Source: Eledone cirrhosa
Taxonomy: Eukaryota
Direction: 5' to 3'
DNA length: 64,000 nt
Assembly (NCBI GenBank): GCA_964016885.1
Contig: OZ024743.1
Coordinates: 88,846,001 to 88,910,000 of the forward strand
Below are positions 21,545-60,939 of the stretch, in pieces (position 1 is the first letter of the stretch; the number at the start of each line of letters is the position of its first letter). A program made the translations under genes and the position numbers. The notes below the pieces were generated by a model. That model was not told the origin of the DNA. It saw only the letters and a list, made by a program, of their open reading frames with translations, and did not search any database.

Positions 21545-23234
21545 TCATCATCCTCATCATCACCGTTTTACGTCCGTTCTTCCACGCTAGCATGGGTTAG
21601 ACGGGTTGTCCTGTTGTGTGTAGTGTCTGGTCGGCTGACCATGCCTTGCTCATACAGGAACTGATTTGGCTTGATTTCTACAGCTGGATGCCCTTCCTAA
21701 CACCAACCTCATTTACAGTGAGTGCTGGGTGCTTTTTCGTGGCGCCTACACGTCCACTTTACAGTGTGGGCTGGGTGCTTTTTTGCCGTGGCACCTCCAC
21801 GACCACCTTGCGGTGGAGGGTGTGGGGGCATACTGTTTATATGCTTCAGCATGTACCCATGGGAGGTCGGGTACTCTGTATTACTGCGTGACGCCAGAAG
21901 TCACGGTCGTGTGTCATTGTCTTTGAGAGGTGTAATTGGGTAAGGTCGGCTTTTATCACCTCATCCCAGGTCATCTTGGGTCTCCCCACTCCGTGGTTTC
22001 CATCAACTTCTAGTGCTCTGCACCTTTTTATGCAGCTGTCATCCTTCATACGCATCACATGTCCATACCAGCGCAACCGCCTCTCCTGCACACAGCATTT
22101 GATTCCTCTTATGCTCAGTCTCTCTCTCAATTCATTTATGGTTTGTCGTTTGCGTATATTACTGTTACACATCCATCGGAGCATGCAGGCTTTGTTTCTC
22201 TCTAATCTACGTAAGTCTTCCACCTTCAGCGCCCAGGTCTCACTACCATGCAACATCGCTGTTCGGATACACACATCATACAGTCTGCCTTTCATTCTGA
22301 GGGAGAAGCCTTTTGCAGCTAGCAGTGGTAGTAGTTCCCTAAACTTCTTCCATCCCGTTCTTACCCTAGTTATTGTACTTCCTGAACATCCACCTCCGTT
22401 GCTAATTCGGTCACCTAGGTAGCAGAAGCTGTCTACTGTTTCTACAGGGCCCTCCCAGAGATTGGTGGTACTTGTTTCCTGTGGCTGTTTGCTGCTTGCT
22501 GTTTCAGCACAGCTGCTGCATGTGAATCCTACATTCTTAATTAAGCTTCCTGAGATCCCGCTACATCTCTTGTGTACCCATTGTTTGCATTTGGGGCAGA
22601 GAATGGAGTTCCTACCTACACCTTTCCTACATACTGAGCAAGGCCATTTCCCTGAGGGGATCTGGGTTCTGTTTTCTCGTCTACTTACAAGGACCTTAGT
22701 CTTTGTCATGTTGACTTTGAGACCCTTTCTCTCTAGTCCCTGCTTCCAGGTTTGGAATTTATTCTCTAGTTCTACCATAGATTCAGCTATGAGTGCGAGG
22801 TCATCAGCATACAGGAGTTCCCATGGGCATCCGGTCTTAAACTCCTTCGTTATTACCTGCAGGACTATGATGAACAGGAGAGGGCTAAGAACAGAGCCCT
22901 GGTGGACCCCAACCTGTACGCTAAATTCCTCGCTATACTCATTGCTAATCCTAACTTTGCTGACTGCTCCCCGATACATGGCTTGTACCGCTTTCACAAG
23001 CCATTCATCTACTCCTAGTTTTCTAAGAGCCCACCAGATTACAGCACGTGGAACTCTGTCAAAGGCTTTCTCAAGGTCGACAAATGCCAAGTAGAGTGGC
23101 TTACTTTTAGCTAGGTACTTTTCCTGTAATTGCCTCACAAGGAAGAGGGCATCAGTGGTGCCTCTTCCTGGTACAAACCCAAATTGCATCCCGTCTATAT
23201 TCACCCGGTCCCTAATCAGCTGTGCTATAACTCG
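21545..23234 (-). mobile_element. 5'-truncated RTE LINE, family C; open RT ORF 21846-23234
   Basis: QFGFVPGRGTTDA, AFVDLEKAFDRVP, GVHQGSVLSP, YADD and a Cys-rich CSVC..CPKC..HKRC..CSSC insert. Confidence 0.95.
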
Positions 23235-23261
23235 TATATATATATATATATATATATATAT

Positions 23262-24151
23262 AACAAAGAAAGTGTGGTAAGAAACCAGGTGGACCATAAC
23301 GCACCAAAGTACTCGATACTTCGGGTAGTAGAGTGGGTAATAGGAAAAAAGTCAGGACCCTCATGGCTGAGATCCGGCCGTTTCGACAGTTAGGTCCAAA
23401 CTAAGCCAGCGGTATTAGGACGGCGGGAATCTAGCTGAACATATCAAGGGGTAAAGTCCATATATGGGCATGCAGTCAAAACAAAAAAAGCAGAAATATC
23501 TAATCAAACAATCCTTAGGTTAGCCCGGAATATTTTTACTCTTGTTAAATATACATAGCCATGCTTTTTTGGGGTGTATCATTATAAAAGAAAATACTAG
23601 TAAATTACTTTATTGAGGTGCCCTTCCCATGCATTAGAGTAACTGATAACTAAATTTCTTTATGAGGAATTTAATTAGTATTAATATCTATATGCTTTGC
23701 CCTTAGCTAAGTGTTAGACTTGGTATATTTACTTACACTCTAACAACCTTCCTTGATTCTTACATGCTGAAATTACTTTCTTACCCCTATTAAAGATAGT
23801 TGTAAAGATTTCTCTCTTAACACCTGACCAGCTTGGCACCCACAGGTCACACACTAATCTTACTCCCTCCCCTTTGTTCTACAGGCCAGTCCCCCCCCCC
23901 CCCCCGCTATGAAGGCATTTAACCATGGTACATGACATCCGCAAATCATTGACCACTCCCCATGACAGATAAGAAAAACAACAAATGTTTGATTTGATAT
24001 TTCTGCATTTTTTGTTTTGACTGCATGCCCATATATGGACTTTACCCTTTGATAAGTTTTGCTAGAATCCCACTGTCCTAATTCTGCTGGCTTAGTTTGG
24101 ATCTAGCAGTCGAAACGGCCGGAGCTCAGCTGTCAGGGTCCTGACTCTTTC

Positions 24152-31000: not shown

Positions 31001-31933
31001 GAATGGAGAATTGAAAACCCTTTTTCTCATAACCTGATACATGCGTTACACATGCTCCATGGATGTTTGTGGACTATTTTTTCAAAATACCAATATCACA
31101 GATTGGAGCACAAAAAGAAACGTTTGTTCTTCATTTATTTCGGTTAAAGCATTCTGCTGGAATTTAGTGCAGACCCGTTTAAATCCAGCGCCTTATAACC
31201 CTGAGTGTAGCCGGGTACACCAGCTAGAAAGACAAATGGAAACATTGTTTCCTCGGTCCCATTTGACAAAAGTCGATTTAGTTCCACAACAAATTAACAA
31301 ACCATACTTGAAGATACGTTGAGGCTGTTGCAAAGGGCAATAACCCTAGACACAATTTTGATCAACTTTTTTTCACCTTTAGCAAATTTACAGGAACAGG
31401 TTTTAGCTACTCAAATCTATTTCAGAGGTCACGCATTCATGTAAAAAAATCAATAAAACTGAAGCGGGGGTTCGACTTTGTGCAAAAAACAAGGCAAAGT
31501 TGCACATGGGAAAACTTTTTACAGGAACGTCTGATTTTCTTGAAAACTGTCGCAAAAGACTCGCCATTATGCCGCGGTAGATAAAGTCCCTTTTATTTCT
31601 TCTTCTGCACATGTGAGCGCGAAAATTGTTAAAAAAAAAAAAAAAACTGTGAAAAAATTTACTTTTTCACCCTGCTTTAAAAATCAACTGAAAATTCAAT
31701 TTCAAGTGAATTTGACTTCCGTCAGTCGTGCAAAGAACAATTTCAATGATACACTTTGAACCTACAATTGATCCATTATTTATGCTCAATTACACACCTG
31801 TGTCTACTAACCTGTTTTTTCCTTGAGGTTCGAAGGTTTTTGCACCTGTGATGCGCGGGAAGTAACTTTCACACATTTTAACAACAGAGCAAAGGTCGAC
31901 TTACACCCGGGCAACGCCGGGTACTTCTGCTAG
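28087..31933 (+). mobile_element. Non-autonomous Helitron, about 3.85 kb, with internal GC-rich repeats
   Basis: 5' TCTTATATATAAAG...gtttgtttg...tgattttcatgaaacttg; 3' hairpin acccgg-gcaacg-ccgggt then CTAG|T. Confidence 0.8.
28565..30600. repeat. Helitron-internal modular GC-rich repeats
   Basis: Recurrent ccctgccctctcccttccctgcacg...ccatgccgcatcc modules; recurrent gtaagtc..attta block at about 28565, 29465, 30218 and 30504. Confidence 0.8.
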
Positions 31934-31980
31934 TATATATATATATATATTTATATGTGTGTGTGTGTGTGTGTGCGTGT

Positions 31981-32183
31981 GAGTCACAGGTTCAACCGGG
32001 GTAACCACAGTAAGTAAGGTACTCAATATATTAGTAGAGTGTAAACATCATGTTTAATATAGAAATTGCTTCTACAGGACTACAACTGTTTCAATCAAAA
32101 GAAATCATCAAGGCTTTCCTGATGATTTGTTTTGAGTGAAACGGTTCTAGTCCTGTAGAAATAATTTCTATATAAAACATGAT
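31981..32183 (-). mobile_element. PLE family beta remnant with short inverted arm (palindrome 32047-32183)
   Basis: Inverted repeat of about 65 bp; CTGATGA...GAAAC at 32119-32142. Confidence 0.6.
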
Positions 32184-32459
32184 ATAGATAGATAATTTTC
32201 TTTTTATTTTCCACCAGGGCATCAAAAAGTGGGACAAGTACAATGGGGGGAGTTTACATAACAAGGCGTCCTCAATAAGGAGGAGGCAATAACAAAATAT
32301 AAAAATAAAATGAAATATAACAAGATAAAATTTATAACAAAATCCTCAATAGAGAGGAGGCGCCTTGGGGAGTCGCACACACCCCCGAAAAAAAGTGTGC
32401 AACCCTTCCCCTCAGGAGCACAGAGAGGGGGTGCTCACTTGGTCTTTCATCTTCCTCAC

Positions 32460-35400
32460 CTATAGTCTGATGTAGAGTGAAGGCCCATTCACACGGGCCA
32501 TTCTCGCCACTTTCACCCATCTTTCATAAAAACGGCTGATCCTTTTTCCGAAATGATATCGAAAGAAACGGACCAGTTGTTGGCCAGAGAGAAAGGTGTC
32601 TGACCTCAGTCCTTTCAGACGCGTCCACCATACAACCTCTTTCGCCATGGCTATTATGCACAGAAACACCGCCTCTCCTTCGTTTTTGAAGAGGGGAGGC
32701 GGCTTGATCGTTACAATAGACTCGGTGCTCAACCGGATCGGTCCCACCCTTGACAGCAGTTGTTCGACATAGCTCCACAGATTGGCAATGCCCGAGCAGT
32801 GTACCAATGCGTGTACAACGGTTTCCTCATCGCACACGCATCTGGGACAGATCTTTTTCGAGGGGTCCCTACCCGGGCGCCCGTGTCTGTAGAGCCTTTC
32901 TCGAACGGGCAGAGCCCTTCTGTAGCACTGCCAGGCCAGGGACCTCTGGAAGTTATCCATGGGTCCCGGGCTGAATGTCCTACCGAACAGGTTGGCCAGT
33001 TCGTCTTCCTCCATGCCTAGGGCTTCACCGAGGGCGTCGTCGCACCTGCTAACCACCAGCCCTCTATAGAATGACGAGGTGGATTCTCCACTGACAGTCG
33101 GGTCCGCCTGCCAGAGAGCCGTGAGCGCCTGGGCACACTCGGTGTGCCAGGCGCCCAGTTTTCTCGGTCTTTTCTTGACCCAGAATTGCAGCTCGGTGAG
33201 TGAGACGAGTCTGGGAAAGGCTCGCCTCACAAACGGGGCCCACACCGGTTGACCGGTGAGGAATACCTGGAGGTACCGTAGCCTTAATGCGTGTTTACGT
33301 ATCATTAGCCACGGCATCCCCAGCCCTCCTTTCGAAGGGTGTTGACAGCAGATGGATCTCCTCACCATAGGAGCCCGCTTCTTCCAAAGGAATTGGAAGA
33401 GTGTGCGCTCCATTTTGGCGAGCGTTTCCCTTGGGCAAGGCACAACGGTCAGGCGGTAGTAGATGACGGACGCTATATAAGTGTTCGCCACCTCCGCCCG
33501 CCCTTTCAGGGACAGTTTGCACTCGGCCCACTTCTGGGTCAGTGCAAACACCCTGTTCGTTACCTCACCCCAGTTCTTCTCCACCTGGAGGTCTGGTTCG
33601 AACCAGACCCCGAGCAACTTCACCGGGCCCTCCGTCCAGCGCCCGACGACGCCATCGGAGGGCATCGATCTGCCCCTCCACGTGCCGAGTTGCAGACTGA
33701 TCGACTTGTCCCGGTTCAGCTTAGCCCCTGTAAACTTTTCGTACTCCTCCAGTAAGGTGCCAACCGCCCCGATTTCCGAGGCTGTCGACACCATCACTGT
33801 TACGTCGTCGGCGTAGGCCGACACCGCTTTCTGCAATCCCGGTTCCAACGGGATGCCCTGCAACAACTCCAACTTCCACAGCAGTGGCTCTAGAGTCATC
33901 ACATACAGAAAGGAGGAGAGAGGGCACCCTTGTCGGATGGACCGCGTGATTTCGAACGGCTCCAAGAGGTAGCCGTTCACCTTGACCCTAGAGCAGATGC
34001 GGCTGCTGTGCATGGCCTTGATCCAGCCCCTGAAAATGGGTCCGAAGCCTGCCGCCGCTAGCACCACATCCAGGTAACCATGGTCGACCCTATCGAACGC
34101 CTTAGATTGATCCAAGTTGATCAAGGCCCCACCAAAGCCCGGTTCGTTCCCAAGCCTCTCTATGATGTATCGCATGAGGTCGAGGTTCTCGTGGATGGAC
34201 CTGGACGGGATAGCACATGTCTGCGCATCTCCCACTAGGTTGCCCACGACAAGCGCCAACCTCTTTGCTAGCACCTTGGCCAAAATCTGTAACTCTGTAT
34301 TTAGCAGAATTATGGGCCTGAAAATATTTATACCGTCCCCCTTGTTCTCGTCCTTCCTCACTAGCGTGATTACGCCCTTGGTCACAGCACAGGGAATTCT
34401 CCCATTCTGTTGCCAGTTGCAGTAGACCGCGTCGAGGAGATCGGTGAACAAGTCCGGCATAGCTAGATATAGTTCGTATGGACGACCATCGAGACCCGGG
34501 GATTTGCGTTTGCCGCATTGGCTCAGCACGTCCTCTATTTCAGCGGCTGAAATCGGCTCCTGGCAGGACTTCACCTCCCTGTCCGAGAGACGCGGCAGGC
34601 CGTCGAGGTATGGACCGAAGTCCACATCCCCAACCGGCTCCCCGCCCCTTCCGAACAATCTGGCAAAGTACTTTTGAAAAGCCTCACACATCTGCTTAGG
34701 TTCAAGGATCACCCGTCCATCCTGGTCTCGCAAAGACCGGATAGTGGATCTGCTCCCTCTTTTGGCTTCTGTCACGCGGGCCCAGCTAACAGCTTTGGTC
34801 CCCTCGTTTCCCAGAGCGCGTATTTTGCTTCGGACGATGCAGCCTTTGTGTTTCGCGTCAAAGAACTGGCCCAGGGCCGTTCTCGACGCTAGCACTCTGG
34901 CCACGTCGCCGCTTCTAATTGCCTCTTCTACACTATCTACCAGCTCCCTTTCCTTCCTATTTCTATTTGAGGCTTACTCCTTACTAAATTCTATAGAGAC
35001 TACTCTAATCTCTCTTTTGAGAGATCCCCACCACCTGCTGTTGATGATGGCGCCCATCAACCGCTCCTTAACTAAAGTGCTAATCCGGTCCCTGTAAGCC
35101 TTACTTGCCGGTAAGGACAAGTTGAGCTTCCAGTAACCGGGTCCCTGTCTATGCGTTCTGTCAAGGTTGATCATGCAGCTCACTAACTTGTGGTCTGAAT
35201 AGCCAACCATGCTCATTTTTGGACAACTTAAAAAGTCCTTATCCTTATTTCTAACTAAGAACCTATCTAGGTACGACCTAGATGATCCGCTGCGATTTGC
35301 CCAAGTCCAGGTTGGCGCAGTCGGAAAATCTAGTGGATATCTATCGGCCAGGTCAAATCGACCGATTAACCCTTTGAGGCTATTACACCCCTCTCTATCG

Positions 35401-35864
35401 GGACAGGCCCCTACGTAGTCCCAGCGTGCATCTAGGATACCATTCCAGTCCCCCACTAATAGCAAGGAGCGGGACGTCCCTAGAAAAGTCTCCAGACGAT
35501 GGAAGAAGTCCGGCCGCATTGACCCGAAAGGGCCGTAGGCAGCTACCAACCTAAACGCTCCACCTTCACCACTGCCAAGGTCCAGAACCACTAGTTGACC
35601 CTCCGGGTCCAAATGTACCGTCTGTGTTGCGAGACCCAGATGTTTTTGCAGCAGAACGACAACCCCACCCCCACCTCTGGGCTGACAGAGAGATGTGTAC
35701 ATCTCAAAGTCATCAAAGGTGGGGCCCAGCTGTCGCACGTTGCTGATCCGGGCCTCGCAAATAACCATCACATTTATACGTTGTGACCTGAGGTCATTTA
35801 GAAGCATTGCTTGCTTCCAAGTTGAGCCCAGGCCACGCGCATTTAAACAGCCTACTCTTAGCAT
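32460..35864 (-). pseudogene. Tx1 ORF2 (AP endonuclease, RT, C-terminal Cys/His domain) with one in-frame TAA at 34974-34976
   Basis: CLNARGL, LVGDWN, SYLDRF, SDH; KSPGLDG, LDQSKAFDRV, IRQGCPLS, YADD; CPRC..EETVVHALVHC; both ORF pieces are in the same frame. Confidence 0.93.
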
Positions 35865-37624
35865 AGCCGGGTATCGGGCTGCACAATTTCCATTACGGTG
35901 GGGGATGGGTTGTTGGGTGGGGTGGTGGTTTGTGGAAGTGTAGGGGCATCAGTGTGTTGTGTGGCTGGGGTGTTTGGAGTTGTGTGGGTGTTTGGGGAGG
36001 GGGTGGGGTAGTTTTTTAGGAGGACGCGGTTAATGGGCCCGACGCAGGGGGGACCCACATCCTCTTTAAAGTTGTTTTTTAAAGTTTTATAAGTGTCCTG
36101 TGGGGCCTTAATCATTTTGTGGTGGGGGAAATCCCCTGCCTGGGTGAAGTTAGGCCCTTGGGTTTTTATTAAATTGTTGTTGTACACAATGTTTAACAGT
36201 TTTTTGTTTCTTGTGTTTATGTATGTGTATGCATGTTTTTGTTTTTGTGTGGTGTTTTTTGTTTGCTGTTGTTGTGAGCTCTTTTGTGTTGGTGTCAGTG
36301 TTATGTTTTGAGGGGTTGTTTTCATTTGTGTGTCTGAGGTGTGTTTTCTTTTTTTTTTTTGATTGTGTGGAAGTGCTCCTCCTCGTCTGACGACGAACTA
36401 GGGTCATCTTCCGCGTTGGAGGGGAGGCGTATATTTTCGGGTTGTGTGTGCGGTGCGGGTGTTTTGGAAATTTTTTTTTTAGTGTGGGGGGGGGGGGGGG
36501 GTTGGACATTGTTTTGTTTTGGTTTGAGCTGTGGTTGTTGTTTTTGTAATGGTAGTTGTGGTGATTGTGTTGGTTGTGCAGTTATTGGTGGTGTAGGCAG
36601 GATTGGGGTTTTCTTATTAAGTTGGGGACAGACAGCCCTCAGGTGACCTCTGGTTCTGCAGAGGTAACACGAGGGCCGCCTACCCTCAACGGTAATGTTG
36701 ATGAAAGTTTGATCATCCAGTATGACGCGTTCAGGGATCTGGGCGATCCTTTCGGGCCTCATTTGAACTACAAGTTCGAGGCTCGTTCCACTGAACGCGT
36801 CACCCAATGCCTTTCCCATGGACACCAGCGTGTCATCATCCAGGTTCAGGAAACCAGTCAAAACCCACCATATGTCCATAATCGGCAGGATGGTGTGAAT
36901 TTTTATTTTTTGTGTTCTTCTACCCATGTACGTAGGGTAGAAGGTGTATGCGGTGGATGTGATTGGTTTGATGGACAGTTTCACTGCTGTGTCCCTGTCC
37001 TTCATGAGAATGGATAGACTCCCGTAGAGTCTATCCTTCTGAATGAAGGTGATGTCGTTCATGACGTCTTTTAAAACCAGCTCTATCTCACTCTGTGATG
37101 GTTGAGCTGGTTTTTTGCTCTTATTTGAGATTGTCCTAAACATGACAGTGTTTAGGAGTCTCTGGCTTTTTAGTTCCGGGGGGGGGGGAGTGGATCGTGA
37201 ATGAACCATCTTCCCCGTACACTATATATTTTTTGGCATCTGCCAGTAGCTCCGACGCTTTGGTTATATCTACTGGCAGATAGTCGAGGGTTTTCCTTGC
37301 CGTCTGGGCGAAGGAGACTTTTTCCTTGTTTGTGTTGCTGTTGTTGTTATCATTGTTGTTGTTATCACAGTTATTGGTCTTGTTGTTGTTGTTATTGTTA
37401 TTGGTGTTGTTTTCGTCCGTAGCATTGTTGTTGTTGTTGCTGGTGCCGCTGGTTCTTTGGTTTGTTGGCATGGCAACGTCAAGTTGTCGGTCAGCAGGTG
37501 GAGAAAATCCTTCCTCTCGATGACCTTTGTTTTTGACCTCTGCTACTGTGACAGTGGCAGGGGGAAGCTGTAAGCTTATCTTCCCCTTTCCTCCTTCGAA
37601 TTTTGGTGAAGAAGCTTCAGCCAT
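35858..37624 (-). pseudogene. Tx1 ORF1 (gag-like, zinc knuckle), split by frameshifts near homopolymer runs
   Basis: CYLCRTRGHLRAVC (CX2CX4HX4C) in 36322-37209; flanking pieces 37136-37624 and 35858-36325 share a frame. Confidence 0.8.
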
Positions 37625-37825
37625 TTCAACAAAAAAAAAAAAACTTTTTTGTTTAACTATTTCGCCTAAAGGCGTAGAATATTTTGAGAGACTGACCAGA
37701 TCAAAGTTTGACCTGGCAGTCCCTCTACAAAATGGTACAAAAATTAAAGTTTACAGACAAGAATTTCTATAGAAATTTAAACAGAACTTACTCAGCAAGT
37801 TATACGCGTGTGTCCATCCCAGCGG

Positions 37826-37980
37826 TATAGATAGATAGATAGATGGATGGATAGATGGATAGATGGATAGATGGATAGATGGATAGATGGATAGATAGAT
37901 AGATAGATGGATAGATGGATGGATGGATGGATGGATGGATGGATGGAGAAATATACAGATAGGTAAATAGATAGATAGAT
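37826..37980. repeat. (GATA/GGAT)n microsatellite
   Basis: Direct observation. Confidence 0.95.
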
Positions 37981-38057
37981 GGCTAAATGGACAGATTGAT
38001 AGATAGTTCGATAAATCGAAAGCTAGATGGATAAATTGAGGAATGTATATATATATA

Positions 38058-38201
38058 TAACAAAGAGGGTGTGGTAAGATGCCAGGTGGACCATAACACA
38101 CCAGAGTACTCAATACTTAGGGTAATAGAGTGGGTAATAGGAAAAGAGTCAGGAGCCCGACGACTGGAGATCAGCCGTCAGAGTCCTGACTCTTCTCCTA
38201 T
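38058..38201 (-). mobile_element. PLE family alpha fragment with short inverted arm (38137-38201)
   Basis: Matches 23262-23375; aagagtcagga / tcctgactctt inverted repeat. Confidence 0.7.
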
Positions 38202-38284
38202 ATACATATATATATATATATGTAGGAGGTGAGTTTTATTGTAGTACAATAAAGCATTGAACTCCTTTAACCATCTTTTGATCT

Positions 38285-38323
<39 letters not shown>

Positions 38324-38331
38324 GATAGATA

Positions 38332-38411
38332 ACTTTCTTTTTATTTGCCACCAGGGCATCAAAAAGTGGGACAAGTACAATGGAGGGAGTTTACATAAAA
38401 AGGCGTCCTCA
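38332..38411 (-). mobile_element. 80-bp 3' end of the same Tx1 family
   Basis: Near-identical to 32195-32275; flanked by atagatagata on both sides. Confidence 0.9.
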
Positions 38412-38494
38412 ATAGATAGATAGATAGGTGGTGAAAGTAAGGTAGGCATGACGATCTAAGCAGGTTAGTGTTAGGTTTAGTTGGAAATGAAATA

Positions 38495-39375
38495 AAATAA
38501 TTGTTTCTACTTTTGGCACAAGGCCAGCAATTATCCCAGTGCATTACTGGTACTTTATTTCATTGACCCCGTAAGGATGAAAGGCAAAGTTAACCTCGGT
38601 GGGATTTGAACTTCACTACTGGGATAACAGTGTATTGTCTGCTATTTTTCTCCTCTTCCATTTTTTAACCCTTTCATTACCATATTTCTAATAAAATAAT
38701 GAAATACACTGTATATAGGTTTCAATTAATTTAGAAAATAATAAAACATTTGGAGGAATTTAATAAAATAACTAAATTTTCCATTAGTAAACTGATATTT
38801 AGTTCATTAATAATAATAATTGTTTCTACTTATGGCACAAGGCCAGCAATTATCCAGTGTATTACTGGTACTTTATTTTATCGACCACGTAAGGATGAAA
38901 GACAAAGTTAACCTCGGCGGGATTTGAACTCAGATCGTAAAGGGACGTAACTGTTCATTAATAATAATAATTGTTTCTACTTTCGGCACAAGGCCAGCAC
39001 TTATCCAGTTCATTACTGGTACTTTATTTTATCGACCCCGTAAGGATGAAAGACAAAGTCAACTTCGGCGGGATTTGAACTCAGATCGTAAAGGGACGTA
39101 ACTATGCTGGAAAGCATGGCGTCCGACCCTCTACCGATACTGCCAATCCACAAGAATGCTTTCTGATTTAGGCACAAGGACAACAGATTTTTGGGATGGG
39201 AAAAATCAATTAAATTGACCCCAGTGCATTACTGGTACTTTATTTTATCAACTCTGAAAGGATGAAAGGCAAAGCTAACCTCGACAGGATTTAAAAGCAG
39301 GACGTAAACAGCCGGAATAAATGCCACAAATAATTTTCTCCAACACTCTAATGATTCTGCCAATCCACCGGCCTA
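38495..39375 (-). mobile_element. Cluster of four Nin-like SINE copies (about 38495-38612, 38810-38953, 38960-39150, 39160-39375)
   Basis: Repeated ggcacaaggccagc...aaggatgaaag.caaagttaacctcgg.gggatttgaac. Confidence 0.85.
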
Positions 39376-49626: not shown

Positions 49627-51459
49627 CATCATCATCATCATCATCACCGTTTTACATCTGTTCTTCCACGCTAGCATGGGTTAGACGGGTTGTCCTGTTG
49701 TGGGCAGTGTCTGGTCGGCTGACCATGCCTTGCTCATACAGGAACTGATTTGGCTTGATTTCTACAGCTGGATGCCCTTCCTAACACCAACCTCATTTAC
49801 AGTGAGTGCTGGGTGCTTTTTCGTGGCGCCTACACGTCCACTTTACAGTGTGGACTGGGTGCTTTTTTGCTGTGGCACCTCCACGACCACTTTGCAGTGG
49901 GAGGGTGTGGGGGCATATTGTCTATATGCTTCAGCTTGTACCCATGGGAGGTTGGGTACTCTGTATTACTGCGTGACGCCAGAGGTCACGGTCGTGTGTC
50001 ATCGCCTTTGAGAGGTGTAATTGGGTAAGGTCGGCTTTTATCACCTCATCCCAGGTCATCTTGGGTCTCCCCATTCCGCGGTTTCTATCGACTTCTAGTG
50101 CTCTGCACCTTTTTATGCAGCTGTCATCCTTCATACGCATCACATGTCCATACCAACGCATCCACCTCTCCTGCACACAGCATTTGATTCCTCTTATGCT
50201 CAGTCTCTCTCTCAATTCATTTATGGTTTGTCGTTTGCGTATATTACTATTACACATCCATCGGAGCATGCAGCCTTCGTTTCTCTCTAATCTACGTAAG
50301 TCTTCCACCTTCAGCGCCCAGGTCTCACTACCATGCAACATCGCTGTTCGGATACACGCATCATACAGTCTGCCTTTCATTTTGAGGGAGAAGCCTTTTG
50401 CAGCTAGCAGTGGTAGTAGTTCCCTAAACTTCTTCCATCCCGTTCTTACCCTAGTTATTGTACTTTCTGAACACCCACCACCGCTGCTAATTCGGTCACC
50501 TAGGTAGCAGAAGCTGTTTACTGTTTCTACAGAGCCCTCCCAGAGATTGGTGGTACTTGTTTCCTGTGGCTGTTTGCTGCTTGCTGTCCTAGTACAGCTG
50601 CTGCATGTGAAGCCTACATTCTTAATTAAGCTTCCTGAGATCCCGCTACATCTCTTGTGTACCCATTGTTTGCATTTGGGGCAGAGAATGGAGTTCCTAC
50701 CTACACCTTTCCTAGATACTGAGCAAGGCCATTTCCCTGAGGGGATCTGGGTTCTGTCTTCTCGTCTACTTACAAGGACCTTAGTCTTTGTCATGTTGAC
50801 TTTGAGACCCTTTCTTTCTAGTTCCTGCTTCCAAGTTTGGAATATCTTCTCTAGTTCTACCATAGATTCAGCTATAAGTGCGAGGTCATCAGCATACAGG
50901 ATTTCCCATGGGCATCTGGTCTTAAACTTTTCCGTTATTGCCTGTAGGACTATGATGAACAGGAGGGGGCTAAGAACAAAGCCCTGGTGGACCCCAACCT
51001 GTACGCCAAATTCCTCGCTATACTCATTGCTAATCCTAACTTTGCTGACTACTCCCCTATACATGGCTTGTACAGCTTTCACAAGCCATTCATCTACTCC
51101 TAGTTTTCTAAGAGCCCACCAGATTACAGCACGTGGAACTCTGTCAAAGGCTTTCTCAAGATCGACGAATGCCAGGTAGAGTGGCTTACTTTTAGCTAGG
51201 TACTTTTCCTGTAACTGCCTCACAAGGAAGAGGGCATCAGTGGTGCCTCTTCCTGGTACAAACCCAAATTGCATCTCATCTAGTTTCACTCGGTCCCTAA
51301 TCAACTGTGCTATAACTCTTTCGGTTATTTTCATGACCTGGTCCATCAGCTTTATACCTCTATAGTTTCCTCTATCAAGTGCATCATCTTTACCTTTGTA
51401 GCAGTTGACAATGATGCTACTGCACCAATCTTTTGGTATGACACCTTCTAGTATTACCT
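49627..51459 (-). mobile_element. 5'-truncated RTE family C; open RT ORF 49931 to about 51460
   Basis: NYRGIKL, QFGFVPG, AFVDLEKAFD, YADD; candidate TSD ggtat (49622-49626 and 51460-51464). Confidence 0.95.
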
Positions 51460-51498
51460 GGTATGTCAATATTTATTTATAAAACTGCTCTATATTAT

Positions 51499-58924: not shown

Positions 58925-60815
<1,891 letters not shown>

Positions 60816-60939
60816 TTTATTTTTCAACATAGTCCCTGGGAAGAAACAATGTAGTTATTAATATATATATATATATATATATATAAATACATAAATGAAA
60901 GGTACAGAAAACACTGCAGCGAAAAGCGAACAGCATTCC

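Follow-up and report, generated by a model that had tools for sequence, protein, structure and literature searches.

The stretch of DNA analyzed here, referred to as the window, comprises 64,000 nt of the Eledone cirrhosa genome (GenBank assembly GCA_964016885.1, contig OZ024743.1, forward-strand positions 88,846,001 to 88,910,000). It harbors on its minus strand a long interspersed nuclear element (LINE), and we describe this element, the family it belongs to and the association of this family with GATA/TATC microsatellites. A preliminary description of the sequence had claimed that a 5.6-kb element is bounded on both sides by GATA repeat sequence, and that an 80-bp fragment of the same family at 38332-38411 is likewise bounded by GATA units in the same orientation and phase. 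Both observations hold: the letter-identical 12-mer tatagatagata (forward strand) is found at 32183-32194 and 37826-37837, where it brackets the minus-strand element, and the short copy, which lies between tatagatagata and atagatagatagatag, agrees with the long copy in orientation and register. Perfect GATA/TATC runs of at least three units occur in the 64-kb window only around these two LINE copies.

The element and its short second copy

The features of both copies are compiled in Table 1, together with the target-site duplications discussed below. The first nucleotide of the element, with the CTGGGATGG start at position 37822, and its 3' end are each common to all 29 other copies with which they were compared. 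The last 60 nt or so of the 3' untranslated region (UTR) form a module that is conserved in at least six subfamilies. Within open reading frame (ORF) 2, the Pfam domains Exo_endo_phos and RVT_1 were found in one frame, whereby the endonuclease of the apurinic/apyrimidinic (APE) type is located N-terminal to the reverse transcriptase (RT). The C-terminal match to PF13966, which scores below the curated cutoff in the window copy, is precomputed for many of the relatives listed. As ORF1 is out of frame and ORF2 carries a stop, the window copy is defective in both ORFs and is a damaged, dead element. It also lacks approximately 24-27 nt near the C-terminal end of ORF2 (at about 32537, element position of about 5290) that are present in most other copies; BLAST alignments break at about 32537 in most loci, and the other copies use 2,256 nt for the same 743 amino acids (aa) for which the window copy uses 2,229 nt.

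Table 1. Features of the two LINE copies in the window, and informative target-site duplications at family copies (loci with L numbers lie elsewhere in the genome)
Feature	Position or locus	Strand	Description
LINE body	32195..37822	minus	5,628 nt; family 5' end CTGGGATGG to 3' end ...AAAAAGAAAAT; no poly(A)
Downstream target-site duplication copy	32183..32194	minus	12 nt, TATCTATCTATA in element sense; duplication of the window copy
Upstream target-site duplication copy	37826..37837	minus	12 nt; letter-identical to 32183-32194
Extra letters at 5' junction	37823..37825	minus	CCG in element sense, between 5' end and repeat; absent from other copies
Compound (GATA)n/(GATG)n array	37827..38033		Target microsatellite on the upstream side of the element; period 4 and 51.8 copies in Tandem Repeats Finder
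3' UTR	32195..32459	minus	265 nt; AATAAA at 32203-32208, 8 nt before element end
ORF2	32460..35864	minus	Single frame, 1,134 codons, one in-frame stop at 34974-34976
APE-type endonuclease domain	35190..35804	minus	Pfam Exo_endo_phos, E 8.3e-9
Reverse transcriptase domain	33606..34331	minus	Pfam RVT_1, E 1.5e-23; YADD at 33804-33815
C-terminal zinc-binding motif, zf-RVT-like	32775..32942	minus	PF13966, E 4.2e-5, 24.5 bits (curated cutoff 27.5 bits)
ORF1 remnant	36322..37624	minus	At least two frames; CCHC knuckle (CYLCRTRGHLRAVC) at 36628-36669
5'-truncated copy	38332..38411	minus	Last 80 nt of the family; boundary extendable to 38414 by microhomology
GATA units 3' of short copy	38320..38331		tatagatagata
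(GATA)4 5' of short copy	38412..38427		atagatagatagatag
Duplication	L014		TATCTATTATA, 11 nt
Duplication	L076		TATCTATTTCTC, 12 nt
Duplication	L083		TATCTTACAAT, 11 nt; lone TATCT site
Duplication	L091		TATCTTATATATGTTTC, 17 nt; lone TATCT site
Duplication	L090		Starts TATCTTTATACAG..., about 18-20 nt
Duplication	L009		Starts TATCTATCTGT, 11-14 nt

The short copy might have arisen by a local duplication of the 3' end of the long copy, an event that the preliminary description had named as a possible objection to its reading and that would account for the shared orientation and register of two copies only about 500 bp apart. However, outside the repeat the flanks of the two copies have nothing in common except low-complexity matches. 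Both copies differ at 4 of 80 nt, and at one of these positions the long copy has a private A, whereas the short copy and all 29 other copies have the family base C; the other three are changes of the short copy itself. Furthermore, an unrelated interspersed repeat of about 180 bp separates both copies, and comparable truncated copies of 65-130 nt flanked by TATC are common elsewhere in the genome. Since the short copy retains the family base and its flanks are unrelated to those of the long copy, its sequence identifies it as a separate 5'-truncated insertion, and a local duplication is very improbable. The interspersed repeat itself (38043-38225) is flanked by (TA)n and yielded 2,804 first-look candidates in a genome search, with identities of 82-96% and some loci matching on both strands.

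TATC repeats at the element junctions

The 3' junctions were collected by using the 3'-terminal 100 nt, without any flank, as a query against the E. cirrhosa genome (2.996 Gb), which gave 796 first-look candidates, of which 40 were scored and the best 30 loci fetched. In these 30 loci, a TATC-type tract (in element sense) follows every one of the copies, while GATA follows none. The tract comprises 1 to 27 units (median 6), and junction positions +2 to +5 read A, T, C, and T in 30, 30, 29, and 30 of the 30 copies, respectively. The exact 3'-terminal 29-mer occurs 241 times genome-wide, whereby the next letters are NATCT in 207 cases and TATCTATC in 126 cases. Among the first 100 listed 3' ends, 89 show NATCT; of the 11 others, 6 are TATC arrays whose first unit is a variant, and 5 lie outside arrays. 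As a background, (TATC)4 was counted 262,150 times on both strands of the 2.996 Gb, which corresponds to about 4.4e-5 per position and strand, and TATCTATC starts at 17 of the 128,000 position-strands of the window. The GATA association is not due to chance. Arrays are also preferred beyond the TATCT pentamer as such: 17 of the 187 TATCT sites in the window continue as TATCTATC, compared to 126 of 207 at the junctions.

For the 5' junctions, the 5'-terminal 120 nt of the element were used as a query for full-length copies, which led to the identification of 29 other loci and, including the window copy, to 30 ends. Of these, 27 clearly abut a TATC-type repeat, two abut a degenerate one, and one abuts none. 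Genome-wide, the exact 5' 24-mer was found 334 times, with TATCT directly before it in 220 cases. Truncated copies, whose truncation points differ widely, were inspected in two samples. In the first, the 5' boundary bears TATC in 15 of 18 copies (in one of the 15 it is 6 nt off) and none in 3, and the second, taken in genome order, showed TATC or a duplication in 9 of 14 and neither in 5, so that the combined count is 24 of 32. The preliminary description had proposed a (GATA/TATC)n-specific family on the basis of two insertions, and had regarded predominantly non-GATA flanks as an argument against it. The genome-wide counts (207 of 241 3' ends with NATCT, 220 of 334 5' ends with TATCT) bear out this proposal, and most copies are flanked by TATC.

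It has to be considered whether the TATC repeat beside the element is target DNA or a part of the element. The repeat might be an element-borne 3' tail made by the RT, and the TATC at the 5' ends might then derive from older copies located upstream or from passive accumulation in repeat-rich DNA. The lack of a poly(A) and the nearly invariant positions +2 to +5 would fit such a tail, as would the 10 of 48 5' junctions that lie directly behind the 3' end of another copy. However, the 220 5' ends abut TATCT in register, many of them with long pure arrays and without an older copy upstream, and the downstream tract varies in length between 1 and 27 units. Most informative are seven target-site duplications that contain non-repeat letters and can thus be recognized at both ends of the element (Table 1). 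They are 11 to about 20 nt long and all of them start with TATCT, including two at lone TATCT sites. Because the duplications begin with TATCT, carry non-repeat letters and occur in two cases at lone sites, the TATC repeat beside the element is target DNA and not an element-borne tail, an explanation to which we attach almost no weight. The same duplications imply that the first nick is fixed relative to TATCT. A LINE with an element-borne microsatellite tail, in which the repeat is present at the 3' side only and the 5' flanks are unrelated, was likewise rejected as a description of the family in view of the 5' ends abutting TATCT.

Two further observations concern individual insertions. The copies at the lone sites (L083 and L091) are truncated and lie outside of any microsatellite, and such off-array insertions show the minimal site. 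On contig C3 (about 217,897,000-217,915,000; L072-L075), at least three full-length copies follow one another head to tail at a spacing of 5,764 bp, and the 34-nt spacers between them are letter-identical. As the spacers are identical, this stack stems from tandem duplication and not from repeated targeting.

Classification, coding capacity, and neighboring repeats

The nearest proteins are from cephalopods, namely Argonauta hians (59% and 64% identity) and Acanthosepion pharaonis (48% identity). Among solved structures, the RT matches human L1 ORF2p best, with an E value of 3.6e-44 and far ahead of R2. With a family profile, human L1 ORF2p reached 455 bits, compared to at most 136 bits for R2. 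The family profile was also used for the endonuclease, for which a single sequence gave spurious matches only, and it found L1-EN at about 110 bits (E about 1e-31). The best 60 chains listed (to E 0.0038) include cellular APE1 at about 58 bits but neither the R1Bm nor the TRAS1 endonuclease, and R1 clade membership was rejected given the match to L1-EN. Judged from these protein similarities, the family belongs to the L1 group.

The preliminary description had gone further and called the element Tx1-type. The L1-group RT and endonuclease, the CCHC-type ORF1, and the nearest named Atlas cluster, which carries the automatic label "Transposon TX1 uncharacterized 149 kDa protein family" (score 0.97), are all consistent with that name, and membership in the Tx1 clade is likely. 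The family profile scores 636 bits against the zebrafish protein BAC82613 ("pol-like protein [Danio rerio]"), the only protein that was named by cluster look-ups. From its accession series, the latter would be a protein of the Kojima and Fujiwara screen. The family could instead stand outside the Tx1 clade, either in the L1 clade proper or in an unnamed L1-group lineage. Here, the gap between 636 bits for BAC82613 and 455 bits for human L1 ORF2p is not wide, and two fish relatives tested as L1-clade anchors score just 253-333 bits on human L1. The TX1 label of the Atlas cluster argues against such a position, and so does ORF1, since a CCHC knuckle without Transposase_22 is consistent with the Tx1 clade according to passages in PMC5203782. 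In addition, the octopus repeat tables, as far as given in excerpts of PMC13282606, contain 13 recently active L1-Tx1 families (80 in the supplement) and no plain L1 among the recently active LINEs. Overall, we consider a position outside of the Tx1 clade rather unlikely.

ORF1 was compared in several ways. An ORF1 family profile matches retroviral nucleocapsid (NC) knuckles with an E value of 4e-6, Pfam zf-CCHC is matched by 5 of 25 relatives, and a Pfam match to Transposase_22 was not found in ORF1. Comparison of the family profile with solved structures gave no sequence match for the N-terminal domain. The Atlas neighbors of ORF1 are ZCCHC3-type RNA-binding clusters with scores of 0.88-0.90, which we regard as a lead only. 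An exhaustive search retrieved 136 ORF1 relatives, compared to 0 in a word-based homologue search.

Among the fetched loci, at least six subfamilies can be distinguished, all with the TATC junction and with the conserved 3' module (about 60 nt). Over the last 1,000 nt, twelve copies of the main subfamily show a median pairwise difference of 2.7%, compared to 3.4% between the window copy and the others. A search of the E. cirrhosa genome with ORF2 gave 59 other best-scoring matches, 33 of which are stop-free over the 743-aa match; 8 of these 33 have an open frame of 1,152-1,153 aa. Based on these open frames, the family may still hold coding-competent ORF2s. ORF1 is present as a single frame of at least 466 aa in 3 of 29 other copies (L040, L046, and L054), where it continues from about nt 214 as far as the sequence was read, and single frames of 389-438 aa are found in 3 more of these copies. 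In two public sequencing runs labeled as other species (X4 and X6), contigs cover ORF2 at a likeness of at least 90% and barely cover 37174-37974, i.e., the 5' UTR and the start of ORF1. It may be that related species have the coding part in common but not the 5' part.

Several other repeats are present in the window. Directly adjoining the 3' flank of the element, a near-perfect palindrome at 32047-32183, with 64-nt arms of 89% complementarity and a 9-nt loop, looks like a miniature inverted-repeat transposable element (MITE). Two open frames of 501 and 513 aa on the minus strand (21849-23351 and 49934-51472) encode RVT_1 followed by a PHD finger and represent copies of another, unrelated LINE family; a further frame at 60058-60816 encodes the PHD finger only. 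At 38802-39103, a 151-bp unit occurs twice. In all four public runs, contig depth peaks by a wide margin in this region, which is therefore a very abundant short repeat, probably a short interspersed nuclear element (SINE).

Target choice and significance of the family

Taken together, we are confident, if short of certain, that the element belongs to a young L1/Tx1-like LINE family that inserts into (TATC)n/(GATA)n repeats genome-wide, in one orientation and register, whereby the specificity likely comes from an APE-type endonuclease that nicks the GATA strand just after AGATA. The position of this nick follows from the logic of target-primed reverse transcription, as duplications that start with TATCT on the sense strand place the bottom-strand nick just after 5'-AGATA-3'. 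The 3'-OH at the nick would then prime cDNA synthesis from the 3' end of the element RNA, and top-strand cleavage would follow 11-20 nt farther along. The preference for arrays could mean that more than one repeat unit is recognized, or that read-through UAUC of the RNA pairs with the nicked repeat. Judged by its sequence, the endonuclease looks competent. Its catalytic residues are conserved: N8, E37, D139, N141, D200, D224, and H225 are invariant in 20 relatives and align to the LNxxGL, QET, GDFN, D, and SDH motifs of human L1 ORF2p.

Alternatively, register and target might be set mainly by the RNA, with read-through UAUC at its 3' end pairing with the nicked repeat and the endonuclease being weakly specific. 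The AATAAA precedes the end of the window copy by 8 nt and, in the subfamily 3' ends listed, the junction by 4-9 nt, and because it is this near to the element end, transcripts would run into the flanking TATC. Also the fact that arrays are favored well past the TATCT pentamer would be in line with pairing. However, the lone-site insertions L083 and L091 still begin exactly at TATCT, which points to a sequence-specific nick. Moreover, a conserved 3' RNA hairpin was not found by RNAalifold among 8 subfamily 3' ends, which gave 3 pairs without any compensatory change, and the single-sequence fold of the 3' end has a z value of -0.84. We therefore judge pairing as the main determinant to be improbable and prefer the sequence-specific nick.

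Some observations nevertheless weigh against a nick-directed insertion into GATA repeats. Pairing of the RNA with the target is another way in which the register could be set. Five of the first 100 3' ends lie outside TATC arrays, and 8 of the 32 truncated copies have neither TATC nor a duplication at their apparent 5' boundary; 2 of these 8 are visibly rearranged, and no explanation is at hand for the others. Tandem duplication accounts for some of the head-to-tail stacks, and stacks alone should not be counted as independent insertions. Finally, the public contigs of four sequencing runs gave only repeat-driven depth and joints over 31300-39300; none of them joined across the element, and they showed no empty (pre-insertion) allele.

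LINEs that target microsatellites are known from other animals. Human LINE-1 is the best solved match for both RT and endonuclease, and its target-primed reverse transcription produces duplications of similar length. Human L1 nicks at a loose TTTT/AA site, has a poly(A) tail, and encodes a Transposase_22 ORF1, whereas here the site is tightly linked to TATCT, a poly(A) is absent, and ORF1 is of the CCHC type. Closer in target choice are Kibi and Koshi, LINEs of the Tx1 clade from teleosts with the targets (TC)n and (TTC)n, as cited in parts of PMC4494074 and PMC3812793. Like the family described here, they are L1-group LINEs of the APE type with sequence-specific microsatellite insertion. They differ in the repeat and the host, (TC)n and (TTC)n in fish compared to the tetranucleotide (TATC)n/(GATA)n in a cephalopod, and the protein is only about 30% identical to BAC82613, the single zebrafish protein of that deposit series compared. 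Crocodilian Tx1 families likewise show a preference for tetranucleotide microsatellites, which was judged from their flanks, but for (TTCC)n or (TTTC)n and in another host; the threshold in that study was 20% of flanks according to the passages available from PMC4494074, compared to 52-86% of exact junctions with the motif here. Waldo, with (ACAY)n, and Mino, with (AC)n, are microsatellite-targeting LINEs of the APE type as well, placed in the R1 clade in the relevant parts of PMC3812793. In contrast to these, the endonuclease of the present family matches L1-EN (E about 1e-31), and R1Bm and TRAS1 are not among the best 60 matches listed.

The LINE microsatellite targets given in excerpts of the literature comprise (ACAY)n, (AC)n, (TC)n, (TTC)n, and (TAA)n (PMC3812793), (TG)n, besides some HERO families (PMC4640811), and (TTCC)n and (TTTC)n (PMC4494074), none of them being (GATA)n. 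A LINE with a (GATA)n or (TATC)n target was not reported in the literature searched, a search that did not extend to Kojima and Fujiwara 2004, Repbase Reports, and the supplementary figures of PMC4494074. The family thus presents a new target, a tetranucleotide in a mollusc, for a kind of element that is already known from relatives in fish and crocodilians. A more far-reaching proposal, which we put forward tentatively and with somewhat more doubt than belief, is that it might constitute the first (GATA)n-specific tetranucleotide LINE lineage and the first microsatellite-specific Tx1-like lineage in molluscs, comprising at least six subfamilies and hundreds of copies (median pairwise difference 2.7%), with ORF2 open in some of them, an endonuclease that reads AGATA, and tandem repetition that boosts integration many-fold. 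If this were true, the family would be a natural two-step targeting system (nick plus register), and the GATA microsatellite landscape of octopods would be reshaped by it as well.

Site-directed integration has natural models in target-specific LINEs, and the choice of microsatellites by APE-type elements is described as poorly understood in passages of PMC3812793. In this context, the young copies of the family number in the hundreds, its nick site is fixed to the nucleotide, and its duplications at lone sites are informative; its target is a four-letter repeat that is common in animal genomes. The family is a clean natural system in which the choice of a repeat by APE-type LINEs can be addressed. 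For annotation, it is relevant that these insertions are tied to much of what appears as GATA microsatellite structure in this genome.

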